Positions 618-11,403 of a stretch of 47,935 bases of DNA are shown piece by piece (the first letter of the stretch is position 1; each line of letters starts with the position of its first letter). The notes under the pieces were generated by a model that worked only from the letters and a program-made list of their open reading frames with translations, had not been told where the DNA came from and made no database searches. The stretch is from the NCBI GenBank assembly GCA_023231475.1, contig JALJEE010002819.1, positions 1 through 47,935 of the forward strand. Reading direction: 5' to 3'. Source of the DNA: Seison nebaliae. Lineage: Eukaryota. Both the position numbers and the translations under genes were made by a program.

Positions 618-3600
618 TTATTCTGGTTCCATGATAACTTGAGGATTGTTATTCCATGATACTCCTTCCAGAACCTGAGTAATTTCTGTTTCTAGATTTT
701 CAGTTACTAGTTTCTTCGCCCCATTCAAACTGTCAGTAAATGTTCGCCAATTATGTAACAAGTTCCATTCTTCCCAGAATGAAACTAATGCTTCATAGGC
801 CGCTAAAAAGATGAAATGATTTCATTAGTTTAGATTGAAGAGAGTTAGTAATTAAATAACGTTCGTTCAAATGACTTTGTGCGACACAAAATGGAATTAA
901 CAATCGTTTATTTTCTATTTGAGGATAGAAATAAAGAAGGAATTCATAGAAATTTGTTCCAATCTTGTTTGCTAAAAATCCGTTTACACTGATAACTCGA
1001 CAAAATTTATCTTTAAAGAAATTAATTTAAATTTTTTTTATCAATGCAAAAAATAAACTTCCACAATCTTTTTCTGCGCACATCGCAGTAGTGTCAATTT
1101 GAGGAACTTCAAATTTATTTTCATATTCTACCATAAAACTCTTCCAGTCATAAATTTGCAACCAATGTCGCCAAAACCCTAATAATAGTTCAGATAAATT
1201 GACTGAAAAATATTAAAAAATGACTATTGAGATCGGTTTAAATTAGAGAATGGAAACGGTCAGCTGATGATATTGAAGTATGGACACAAATTGGTACTCT
1301 TGAAGAAATATCTGCATGAAGCTCTTTACCGATTGTATAAGAGAACACTTTCACCATTCGTGCATCAACTTGTATAGCTGCGTTTGCTGTAATGTCGATG
1401 CCGAAACAACTATAGTCAACGGGACATCTTAATGTATCTCGACATTCATCCACATTTGCGATCAATGCATTTCTGCCCTTACCTTTAATTGCCTTCTCTT
1501 GATTAATCCAATCAATTTGATTAGTTAATTCCTCCACATACAACGTTAACATTTGTTCCAACGCTTAAATAATTATATTAAATTCTTCTACAAATTAATT
1601 GAAATACGAACGATAATTGGCTGTGTGTAAACGAACACATAGGTCGTACATTCCAGGTGTATCAGTTTGGAATTTATTAAATATGTCCTGAACACCCAAA
1701 CGTTTTAATACTGATTGGCCAATATTAAGAGCTCGACAAACAAATCCATCGGCACATGATTTATCACATCGTGCAGGTGGTTGACTCACTGACAAATAGG
1801 CAAAATATATTAAGAAGTAAAATTAAAATAATACCGCATTTGCCTTGATGTTCAATGTACTCATTTCCACAAATACATTTATAGTATCCTTTGCCATTTC
1901 GTGAGCAAACTGCATTCTCTGGACATAATTTCCCTGACATTGTGTCTGCTTTGTTATTTCCTGTACATTTATACTCAATGGTACAATTGTAATTGAGAAC
2001 ACTGCCACCCACTGGAACAAAACCATAATCGGCAAATGTACATCCACATGAAGAGGAACGAACACATTTGTTATCGAATACCACATAACCAGATTTACAT
2101 ACACAATCTTCTCTAATTTCTGCTTCTTGTGTAGTACAACCTTTACCTTGAATATCAGCACAAGTTTTAGGACAACCTTGTACAAAAGGTTGGTAATTAC
2201 TATTAGCTGGACATGTGACGGCTATAAAGATGAGGAAGATGAATGAAGATAGAAGAAAAAGGAGAATATGAACAGCAAGGTAATTTCTTATCTTTTCCTC
2301 TCCAGTGAATTGGTTTCTTCAATGCGAGTTGACATTCCTTACCAAGGATTGTGGCATAAGCACACAAGAAGTTCGTTAGTTCGGCTTCATTCTTGTAGTC
2401 GATACTTCCAATATCTTCCATACAGAAACCGAAATTAGTTTGGAAGAGACCCTCAGCTTTCTAGAATGGTAAAATAGAAAATCATTTTTAAAATCTTAAA
2501 TTTTCTGACGAATAATTTAACAGTTCTACATTCATCAAATGCCGAAAATCCAAAGACGTATGAACACACATTTCTGAATTTATCTTTTTGGGACAGTGTT
2601 GGTGGCGATGGTCTTGGTTGTTCTACAGCCACTTCATATTCAGCACCTAATCGTTGACATCTAATAAATTGCGAAATGAATATGAGAAGTTGAAGGAGAA
2701 GAATGAAACGTGAAGAATGGAGTATCATCAACTACTTCATAAGAGTAAGCACCGATCCATTCGTGTCTGTTATTTACACCAGTATCAGCTCCATAAGCGT
2801 CAACAAAATCATTTTCAATTCTTCCGTCATAATTGCCACAGATTCCCATCATATATCCTTTCAAAATGGGTGGTACAACAACACGAACGAAGAAATATGA
2901 ATCGTACAGTACATTCCATCCACAATATTCATGGTTAACATACACTCCGTGCATTGGAGACCAATTGATGGTTACACCACTAGCTAAATTTTCAATTGGA
3001 ACTCGAACAGGCAGTTTTTGATAATAGTTGTTGATCTTTTAAAGGTGTGAAATTTCTTTCAAAAAAATAATCAACTAACAAATACTTTGTTGTCGAATAT
3101 TCGGATAGTATATCTACTGAACTTAATATCAATTAATCTAGTTGAGGTATGTTGATTCTTATGATTTTGACCCATAATTGGAACATTCTTTTGTTCTACT
3201 GCAAATGCGCATGGATGCTAAAATGAAACATAATTACATTGAATTTAAATCAGTTTAAATGCAAAACTCGGAAATCTTTCACGGCCGCTAAAACGTATTT
3301 ACAATGTCCCTGGAAATTAATCTTTCGACCATCGAATGAAATGTAATGGGGGTCTCCTTTAGCTATACAAATTCCTGTTGACAATTTAAATTATATATCC
3401 TAATAATAAAGGATAAATTTACCTGGTTCGTTTTTGCTGATATATTTCACCATCATTGGACGACGAGCATATAAGTCAATTGTGGCAGTCAGTGCTAAGC
3501 CAAGTTCTACTTGAAGAGCAACAGTCATTTTTGCTTCGAACTCGAAACGTAATTGAATATTGAAAGGCAAGTTTATGGTTATTTCTCCTCTAAATCGGAA

Positions 3601-9600: not shown

Positions 9601-11403
9601 ACATTAATTTTACACGACTTCCATCACATAACGGTCCACTGGATTTATAGTTTCCTTCCGTCAATAACATATGATCCATAAACTCTTTTACTTCTTGTTG
9701 GTAAACTGATCCATTATATATTCCAGCTAATACTCGCTCAATGGCATATACCTTATAATCGGTGACATCACCAATATTTCCTCGAATTTTCGTTAATTCC
9801 TCATCACAAGTAATATAGGGATCACCATTGTATCCCTTATCACAATGACAATCATAATATCCTTCTTCATTCGGTCCACAATATGCATTGACACCACAAT
9901 TCAATGGATTGTGTTGAACTTCAATATTATTATTCCCATGACATATCAATATTTCCTTACATGTATCACTCACCAACACTTCACCATACTTAAATGATGA
10001 TATTTTATAAAATAAAGTTTGTCAAAAAAATTGTGAAAATAACTCGAATATCTCCCACAGACGATGAACAGCCACATAAAGATGGTGATACACATTCCCC
10101 ATTATGGTACAATAACCCGGACATACATTTACATCCTTCATGAGGCATCTTTTGTATATTACTACAACGAGTTCCTTTGGGATCACTACATGTCTTCTCA
10201 CAGCCAGTGATGTATGGAATGTAAATCATTTCACTGACGGGACATTTAAATGCTAAAATTGAGAGTGAATTAAATTTTGTAGAGATATTTAACAAATATT
10301 AACGACAAAATGCGACTGATCGCCACATAAGTTGTTTATTCGTTGCCATCATACATCGACGGGCAAATGCAGCTGAGTAACGACAAATATCATCATATCG
10401 ATGAGAATCATCAGCTTCCGGATTTTGTAATGCAAAATCAGTTATACAATCTTTCACCGTTTGCGCTAGAAACTCCTTAAGTGACTGTGTTCCTAAGCAA
10501 TCTTTTGTGAATGCTGCATTATTGGCAATGGAGTTACACATAGATTTATATCTGTCCAATGTCTCACCTCCAGCCACTTTGATTTCATTGAACTTCTTAA
10601 TAATCTTTCCTCGTTCTGTTCCTAATGCTCCACATCTTTAAATTCATTAATTATTTATTCGAAATTTCCATTTGATAGTAAGGAACTAACACACTGAATT
10701 CGGTATTATCTAAAACTTCGAAAGTGAACGCACCATCCCATTGGAAAGGAAACAACATTGGTGACATTTGACCATTGGCATCAAATCGATCATTATCTTT
10801 GTTACCTAAAATCAATATTTCAATAATTATTCAAAAAGAATCAATATTTAGCAAGAAAACAAAACCATCAAAGTTACCACACATTCCTATAATTCCCGTA
10901 TTCTTCCATTTAGTACACAATTGTAAATCCAAAGATAAGACGTTCGATTGATCGAGATAAGACACAGTCCATCCACATTCCTCATTAGTAATTACATGAT
11001 AATGACCAACAACTTCTCCTTGAGCGTTATTGCTTGTGAATGGATATCTAATATTCTTTCCGTTCAGGTTTATCAAATTGGCATGATTTCTCACGACGCG
11101 ATAAACGTCGGATTTTGTTATGATATCGAACATAGATAGAACGGTGGGATTATGGCCATCTAAACGAGCATATCGAGGATCGATAGCTGCTTTGAATTCG
11201 ATTCTCAATCGACAATCATTATTTTTACCATTATCTAGTAATAAATATTTGCATTTGCCTTGATGATCATTTCGTTGTCCATCGAATGTTAAGATGTGAG
11301 GATCTCCTCTCAACGAACAAACGGATGGATTACATTGTGCGGCAAATCCTTGAGTGTTAATCTCATAAAAGAGATAAGTGAATAATATGAGATATCTGAA
11401 CAT
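618..11403 (-). CDS. Giant secreted multi-domain protein, zonadhesin/FCGBP/Sfp1-like: signal peptide, 3x VWD-C8-TIL-EGF, 2x SUEL/galactose-binding lectin, Ala/Gly/Val-rich region, novel C-terminal repeats; 24 exons
   Basis: ATG at 11403 starts [19 protein letters not shown] (signal-like). The three VWD starts are [27 protein letters not shown] and [14 protein letters not shown], each with a later G(M/L/I)CGN(F/Y)DG. TIL motifs are GCEKTC and GCPKTC. SUEL-like segments are [21 protein letters not shown] and [27 protein letters not shown]. The ORF fragments join in frame across 23 GT..AG introns, ending at TAA 618-620. Confidence 0.85.

Follow-up and report, generated by a model that had tools for sequence, protein, structure and literature searches.

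What kind of protein is encoded near the start of contig JALJEE010002819.1 of Seison nebaliae, a rotifer that rides on a crustacean (assembly GCA_023231475.1), and what might it do? An earlier note on this DNA had read positions 618 to 11,403 as a giant secreted polyprotein, likened to the sea-star footprint protein Sfp1 and proposed to act as an adhesive, an egg coat or a gamete matrix. Analysis of the whole stretch (47,935 nucleotides, here called the window; AT-rich, with ∼30 % GC) leads us to conclude that 618..11403 is one real gene, SNEBB_010041, on the minus strand. Its architecture represents a lineage-specific form of extracellular polymer from the VWD/lectin family, in which an Ala/Gly/Val (AGV) core and a set of C-terminal repeats are without known relatives. 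By analogy with described glue proteins, an adhesive role appears a reasonable reading.

The coding sequence, supported by a splice model and by identity to a deposited protein, runs from an ATG at 11403-11401 to a single terminal TAA at 620-618 and comprises 24 exons, 9603 nucleotides (nt) and 3200 codons. Between neighbouring minus-strand open frames, the model uses the only short GT-AG introns that join them in frame; all 23 introns are GT-AG, 44-60 nt long, and the frame is kept throughout. As a class these introns have a mean GC content of 0.22, a GTT donor (T at +3) in 20 of the 23 where GTA or GTG is usual, and acceptors that are mostly T-rich and then AG. The largest exon, exon 12 (7203-3879; 1108 codons inside a stop-to-stop frame of 1144 codons), alone carries the second half of the second lectin domain, the linker that follows it, the AGV core and a cationic segment. 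Intron positions recur across the modules described below, between VWD and C8, between C8 and TIL, between TIL and EGF and within the SUEL lectin domains, which points to duplication of modules at the DNA level.

A database search with the largest exon returned, at 100 % identity, the deposited 'hypothetical protein SNEBB_010041, partial [Seison nebaliae]', of 3178 residues. The present model is longer by 4 residues, the donor being placed at 2510 and not at 2522 (GTTAAA), and by 18 residues at the C-terminus, since the deposited protein stops 18 codons short of the in-frame TAA at 618-620. An AATAAA overlaps this stop codon, so the coding sequence probably ends there. Contigs from an independent assembly of public genomic reads span 726-11700 with zero differences from the window, and the Ala/Gly-rich stretch is therefore no misassembly.

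The first 18 residues (11350..11403, minus strand) form a hydrophobic leader like that of a secreted protein, with a similar leader in the Seison paralogue SNEBB_011428, and we regard it as a putative signal peptide. The 118 cysteines of the protein are confined to its modules, and no 19-residue hydrophobicity window reaches 1.6, the maximum being 1.58. From the leader, the distribution of cysteines and the lack of such a window, the protein is likely to be secreted. A transmembrane anchor at residue 2156 was considered and rejected; the hydrophobicity there is 1.58 and the stretch contains Arg and Lys.

From the N-terminus onwards the protein consists of the leader, two copies of a VWD-C8-TIL-EGF-SUEL module, an acidic linker, the AGV core, a cationic segment, a basic segment, a third VWD-C8-TIL-EGF assembly and three C-terminal repeats. 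This is the order proposed earlier, and Pfam, PDB and profile searches, together with composition, bear it out; gene model, deposited record and paralogue likewise support the claim of one giant multidomain protein of secreted type. When the whole protein was compared with Pfam at E ≤ 1, only VWD, TIL, C8 and EGF_3 were called. VWD (PF00094) matches three stretches, with E 4.7e-66 and a score of 222 bits where the cutoff is 22.9, and TIL also three, while one of the three EGF_3 matches lies above its cutoff. The C8 domains are more uneven: that of module 2 scores 31.3 bits, over the cutoff of 23.7, that of module 1 scores 18.6, under it, and module 3 has no Pfam match to C8. In module 3, a PDB sequence search aligns residues 2448-2826 in one unbroken stretch, covering the C8 region, with a MUC5AC D assembly. 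A GDPH motif starts all three VWD domains, at residues 33, 662 and 2455.

Module 1 (8910..11349, minus strand; exons 1-6), defined by Pfam and by PDB and profile matches, contains VWD1 with its GDPH motif at 11296-11307, a C8-like domain, TIL, EGF, a linker and SUEL lectin 1; exon 6 also opens VWD2, whose GDPH motif lies at 9129-9140. Module 2 (7101..8909, minus strand; exons 7-11 and the first 34 codons of exon 12) holds the remainder of VWD2, C8, TIL, EGF, a linker and SUEL lectin 2, and is identified by Pfam, by the FCGBP structure 8rde and by profile. Module 3 (1835..3374, minus strand; exons 14-19) comprises VWD3 with GDPH at 3346-3357, the C8-like region, TIL and EGF, and is recognised by Pfam, by the MUC5AC D assembly and by 31 % identity to the paralogue.

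The solved structure that comes closest, by a wide margin, is that of IgGFc-binding protein (FCGBP), with E 3.1e-104 over 8 stretches in the PDB sequence search and E 1.4e-106 when a profile of the two Seison paralogues is used; the best alignment to 8rde covers residues 654-1071, in module 2. MUC2, MUC5AC, MUC5B and VWF follow. The Seison protein shares with FCGBP (PDB 8rde, 8r0t) and with the D assemblies of these mucins and VWF the repeated VWD-C8-TIL(-E) organisation and a GDPH motif at each VWD start, and its sequence thus places it as a probable D assembly protein of the FCGBP/mucin/VWF type, with cleavage at the motif itself putative. It differs in having only three assemblies, the first two each followed by EGF and a SUEL lectin. 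Composition and Pfam reveal neither the Pro/Thr/Ser-rich (PTS) domain nor the C-terminal cystine knot (CTCK) by which gel-forming mucins are defined; the orphan AGV core and the cationic segment stand in the centre, and the three orphan repeats at the C-terminus.

Identification of the lectin domains is complicated by the fact that both are interrupted by an intron and that Pfam reports no match to SUEL (PF02140) on the whole protein at E ≤ 1; exon 6 alone gives a partial match of 12.6 bits (E 0.18). A PDB sequence search, however, relates lectin 1 (residues 518-618) to the lectin CSL3 (2zx0, E 1.6e-7) and to 5h4s (E 1.2e-4). With the two-paralogue profile these values become E 8.3e-13 for the L-rhamnose-binding lectin 5h4s and E 1.6e-10 for CSL3, and lectin 2 matches a latrophilin-like lectin domain at E 2.3e-5. 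In the paralogue, Pfam itself calls SUEL in two stretches (E 1.6e-14). We conclude that two domains of the SUEL, or rhamnose-binding, type are present, with sugar binding as a predicted property.

The paralogue, SNEBB_011428 (2446 residues), was found by searching with the N-terminal 1205 residues and is colinear with SNEBB_010041, the two being 39 % identical over residues 5-1238 and 31 % over residues 2439-3154. Its centre is occupied by a stretch of ∼450 residues rich in Lys and Arg (88 K and 72 R in 481 residues), and the AGV core is absent. A weak 'C..WL.KFP' match marks the start of the cationic parts in both proteins. With the same frame preserved around a different centre, the core looks like an insertion specific to SNEBB_010041.

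The central region begins with an acidic, mixed-charge linker, recognised by composition (residues 1241-1395; 6636..7100, minus strand; isoelectric point (pI) 4.76, net charge -9, no Cys). The AGV core that follows, delimited by composition and pattern, is 720 residues long (residues 1396-2115; 4476..6635, minus strand). Ala, Gly and Val account for 22.8, 21.5 and 11.2 % of it (55.5 % together), Ser, Thr and Pro for 3.3, 5.3 and 0.6 %; there is no Cys, the pI is 4.4 and the net charge is -32. The earlier note did not recognise the architecture of the protein, and singled out this core. A phmmer search with the central exon (1108 residues) against 1.84 billion representative proteins found no relative at E ≤ 0.001 except the protein itself, Pfam has no match to the core, and the best ESM Atlas score with the core, 0.85, is at noise level. 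GC content at third codon positions is 0.19 in the core and 0.26 in the rest of the coding sequence; the choice of Ala, Gly and Val codons is that of the rest of the gene, from which we take the core to be native sequence.

Part of the core is repeated. Tandem Repeats Finder detects a 396-nt period, present 1.9 times, at 5482-6232, which corresponds to two tandem units of ∼136 residues each (residues 1523-1794; 5439..6254, minus strand) that are 63 % identical (dS 0.45, dN/dS 0.66). Searching the core with a hidden Markov model of the two units yields no additional significant copy, and the other four domains score below zero. Plus-strand open reading frames at 4504-6705, rich in Pro, Thr, Ala and Ser, are not genes; they mirror the GCN- and GGN-rich codons of the core.

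The earlier description of the core as beta-structured is consistent with its pattern. Hydrophobicity in the core alternates, with an autocorrelation z of ∼10 at a lag of two residues and of ∼-8 at a lag of one, relative to 200 shuffled sequences, and the beta hydrophobic moment is 0.37, compared with 0.22±0.01 after shuffling. A proline/glycine rule reportedly put forward by Rauscher et al. in 2006 separates elastomers from silk- and amyloid-forming sequences; with 21.5 % Gly and 0.6 % Pro the core would fall on the silk/amyloid side and not the elastomer side. An RTX-like calcium-binding beta-roll was rejected by eye, there being no GGxGxD nonapeptide register.

The remainder of the central region is basic. 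The cationic segment (residues 2116-2314; 3879..4475, minus strand) is read from composition, helical moment and AlphaFold as a series of amphipathic helices, the moment being 0.30 against 0.23±0.03 in shuffles and the helices being predicted at a local distance difference score (pLDDT) of 40-68; it ends in a short Pro/Thr stretch and then a Gln/Lys tail. Over residues 2116-2330 (215 residues) the net charge is ∼+30. Exon 13 (residues 2315-2448; 3423..3825, minus strand), with no Pfam match, encodes a basic segment with alternating amphipathic stretches of beta type, as judged by composition and moment (pI 9.9 and net +8 over residues 2331-2448; beta moment 0.61 against 0.31±0.04 in shuffles). 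The alternation expected of the 'beta' core and of a 'basic hairpin' is found in both places as a pattern; AlphaFold gave no confident fold for the core.

The three C-terminal repeats (618..1788, minus strand; exons 20-24) had been put forward earlier as novel. Sequence z-scores and AlphaFold divide this region of 320 residues into three Cys-containing alpha/beta units of ∼100 residues each, which are kept in the paralogue. In sequence, repeats 2 and 3 are clearly related (z 8.6), repeats 1 and 3 less so (z 3.0) and repeats 1 and 2 hardly (z 0.7); the predicted structure (pLDDT 70.3, predicted template modelling score 0.42) runs strand-helix-helix-strand-helix three times. No Pfam family covers the repeats, and the model matches no solved fold, the best Foldseek hit having E 0.16 and the best wide VIA-align hit Z 3.1. 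The best ESM Atlas score with the repeats, 0.82, is at noise level, and two metagenome scans with family alignments gave pattern matches with no tblastn-confirmed relative. A search with the C-terminal alignment among proteins of 530-2000 residues, a length range that leaves out both Seison proteins and so makes the result a weak one, likewise gave no relative. A complex prediction for two C-terminal copies scored 0.00, giving no answer, and bears neither way on dimerisation.

Function is read here by comparison with described proteins, among them the flatworm adhesive proteins. According to the available parts of two papers, the ap1 type combines a C-type lectin, VWD-C8-TIL, a long run of calcium-binding EGF domains and low-complexity sequence rich in Lys and Arg (PMC6410801, PMC9229212). 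Mlig-ap1, with lectin, VWD-C8-TIL, EGF and extremely cationic K/R regions, is needed for flatworm adhesion by RNA interference (PMC6410801), whereas in other flatworms, with Tmed-ap1, the cationic part is a separate protein, the ap3 GRK protein (PMC9229212); the two papers report that the flatworm glue proteins have no homologues at NCBI (PMC6410801, PMC9229212). Compared with these descriptions, the Seison protein is similarly large and of secreted type and has the same combination of lectin, VWD-C8-TIL, EGF and cationic sequence, the last represented both by its own +30 segment and by the K/R-rich centre of the paralogue. It differs in that its lectins are of SUEL and not C-type, its EGF domains are three single ones and not 17-19, and its cationic part is short and lies mid-chain; nothing in the flatworm proteins corresponds to the acidic AGV core. 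It resembles the ap1 proteins in kind but does not belong to their family.

The VWD-C8-TIL set recurs, in the available parts of PMC9382459 and PMC9229212, in sea-star Sfp1 and Sfp2, in a sea-urchin Sfp1-like protein and in cohesive proteins of limpets and flatworms. Set against published descriptions of Sfp1 (PMC9382459, PMC6410801), the Seison protein has the same vocabulary of VWD, C8, TIL, EGF and galactose-binding lectin domains, in a giant, secreted-type protein with Cys-rich modules. Sfp1 carries FAMeT domains beside VWD, C8, EGF and lectin, as the available part of PMC9382459 describes, whereas Pfam finds neither FAMeT nor discoidin (FA58C) domains in the Seison protein; no Ala/Gly/Val core is reported there for Sfp1, and the GDPH cleavage that the earlier note attributed to Sfp1 has no basis in PMC9382459, where GDPH occurs 0 times.

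For the core the nearest parallels are of a different sort. Orphan low complexity rich in small residues, beta-type alternation and the lack of any known domain are features that it shares with silks and chorion proteins. They are also found in the COOLPs, orphan repeat proteins of sea-cucumber glue that are predicted to be cross-beta in the available part of PMC12472103. Unlike all of these, the Seison core is embedded between VWD assemblies and not free-standing, only two of its units are recognisably repeated, and its beta structure is predicted from pattern.

The gland-bearing foot of Seison is its means of clinging to the host, onto which the eggs too are glued. It lives attached to Nebalia (PMC8351084 and PMC3426538, in their available parts). 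Since the published proteins in which a lectin, VWD-C8-TIL, EGF and highly cationic sequence occur together serve as cohesive components of temporary glues, we place first the possibility that SNEBB_010041 is a cohesive scaffold of an adhesive secretion, fixing Seison or its eggs to the Nebalia cuticle, and give it a probability of roughly 40 %. The leader would route the protein into secretory granules. The VWD assemblies could link molecules by disulfides, as happens with VWF, with mucins and with FCGBP. At low pH the GDPH motif of FCGBP and MUC2 self-cleaves at its Asp-Pro bond, and might do so here. Glycans of galactose or rhamnose type, whether on glycoproteins secreted along with it or on the surface of the host, would be the ligands of the lectin domains. 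After release, the acidic core (net -32) could pair with the protein's own cationic stretch (+30) or with the polycationic paralogue, and the paired core might then set into insoluble material rich in beta-sheet. In its most specific form, this would be a two-component 'mucin-silk' glue, in which the acidic, silk-like core of a protein polymerised through its VWD assemblies undergoes complex coacervation with SNEBB_011428, at the polycationic centre of the latter, and with the protein's own +30 segment, and then sets as beta-sheet on the host cuticle; so detailed a scheme we consider distinctly unlikely.

Several observations weigh against an adhesive scaffold. The VWD modules are nearest in sequence to FCGBP, a component of mucus, so that a non-adhesive gel role is equally compatible with this part of the protein, and the next database match after the paralogue is a fish 'IgGFc-binding protein-like' sequence (29 % identity, 34 % cover). 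The lectin type and the number of EGF domains depart from flatworm ap1, and the FAMeT and discoidin domains are missing, as noted above. AlphaFold, run without an alignment on residues 1396-2314, gave a mean pLDDT of 36.4, mostly below 35 in the core, and no confident core fold, so that 'beta' or 'silk-like' describes its pattern and composition; the dN/dS of 0.66 between the two core units indicates only mild constraint. The neighbouring genes are of housekeeping type and offer no gland or glue context, and the Seison genome paper and its supplements contain no mention of von Willebrand, VWD, mucin or 'adhesi-'. Of the earlier proposal of an adhesive, egg-coat or gamete protein, then, what stands is the match of its domain set to cohesive proteins (PMC6410801, PMC9382459 and PMC9229212, in their available parts), and what tells against it is the equally gel-compatible kinship of the VWD part with FCGBP.

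That kinship speaks for a mucus-type protective gel or surface coat, FCGBP- or mucin-like, made by gut or epidermal cells and cross-linked through its VWD assemblies, with lectins binding glycans and microbes and with the core as a non-glycosylated spacer replacing the PTS region. FCGBP is the best solved relative and MUC2, MUC5AC, MUC5B and VWF are the next; GDPH is present in all three VWD domains; the arrangement of N-terminal D assemblies, low-complexity centre and C-terminal D assembly mimics gel-forming mucins; and the cationic amphipathic helices could be antimicrobial-like. A gel of this type would, however, be one without a PTS region, as the low Ser, Thr and Pro content of the core indicates, and without a CTCK by Pfam, and the K/R-rich paralogue and the set of lectin, VWD, EGF and cationic sequence fit published glues better (PMC6410801 and PMC9229212, in their available parts). 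We consider it a live alternative, though rather doubtful.

Sperm-egg and egg-envelope proteins provide another comparison. SUEL-type lectins were first described from eggs, and the matches of lectin 1 are to CSL3 and the L-rhamnose-binding lectin, which we take to be fish egg lectins; such egg-type lectins keep an egg-coat or gamete role a live alternative. The protein would then belong to an egg-envelope or gamete-recognition matrix, zonadhesin- or egg-lectin-like, produced in vitellarium, oviduct or male tract, with the core as a chorion-like beta-sheet block. VWD-C8-TIL repeats occur in zonadhesin, and silkmoth chorion proteins have Gly/Ala/Val-rich beta-sheet cores. Zonadhesin, however, has MAM domains and a membrane anchor beside its VWD repeats, whereas the Seison protein has no MAM domain by Pfam and no hydrophobic window of transmembrane grade, its highest window including Arg and Lys; nor is a cationic centre like that of the paralogue a known feature of egg coats. 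On balance this role seems unlikely.

More improbable is a clotting or immune agglutinin of the hemolectin/hemocytin kind, sealing wounds through lectin binding and VWD polymerisation: the combination of VWD-C8-TIL with a lectin is alike in kind to insect hemolectin, but Pfam finds no discoidin (FA58C) domains, Seison is microscopic with few free body-cavity cells, and no result points to immunity. That two or three adjacent genes (N-terminal VWD-lectin, AGV and C-terminal VWD) were wrongly joined in annotation is extremely unlikely, for although the deposited record is flagged 'partial', a single uninterrupted exon joins the end of lectin 2, linker, core and cationic segment, the GT-AG introns, all of 44-60 nt, preserve the reading frame at every junction, the modules have intron positions in common, and SNEBB_011428 likewise carries both the N- and the C-terminal part within a single protein.

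The rest of the window holds genes for an SH2 tyrosine phosphatase (12146-14092, minus strand), RME-8/DNAJC13 (15572-23353, plus), a beta-1,4-galactosyltransferase-type protein (24575-25333, minus), proline dehydrogenase (26714-27154, minus), glycogen synthase (36474-38981, minus) and a copper-transporting P-type ATPase (40025-43471, minus). On the plus strand at 45388-45977, within an open reading frame at 45256-46149, ∼40 tandem units of 12-15 nt encode (GGYIR)n, (GGYL)n and (GGYR)n; this Gly/Tyr/Arg-rich, coding-like stretch of low complexity has a strong GC skew and several frames open. A minus-strand frame of 146 residues at 28646-29083 shows a weak Pfam match to the central domain of flavivirus envelope glycoprotein (E 2e-5; 24.5 bits, below the cutoff of 27), with E ∼0.03 against envelope proteins in the PDB. 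The match may be due to chance, or the frame may be what is left of a viral or class II fusion-type gene.

We found no protein combining VWD-C8-TIL, lectin, EGF and cationic sequence described for rotifers, and the literature found on duo-glands, adhesive proteins and von Willebrand domains does not mention Rotifera. For acanthocephalans, a transcriptome paper refers to cement without naming any VWD, mucin or lectin gene. Were SNEBB_010041 a component of a gut or surface gel, it would be an unremarkable FCGBP-like protein, specific to its lineage and with an unusual spacer. If both paralogues are gland products, however, the convergent glue toolkit of flatworms, echinoderms and molluscs would extend to Gnathifera, and the two would form an oppositely charged pair of partners that is testable for coacervation. 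The two-component glue, if true, would give Rotifera/Gnathifera their first described molecular adhesive and would be a new glue design, with a beta-forming core grafted into a mucin-type frame at the PTS position and a new C-terminal repeat domain closing the protein where a cystine knot would otherwise stand. The AGV core is a candidate for a new sequence of material-forming type, and the C-terminal repeats are a candidate extracellular domain, likewise new.

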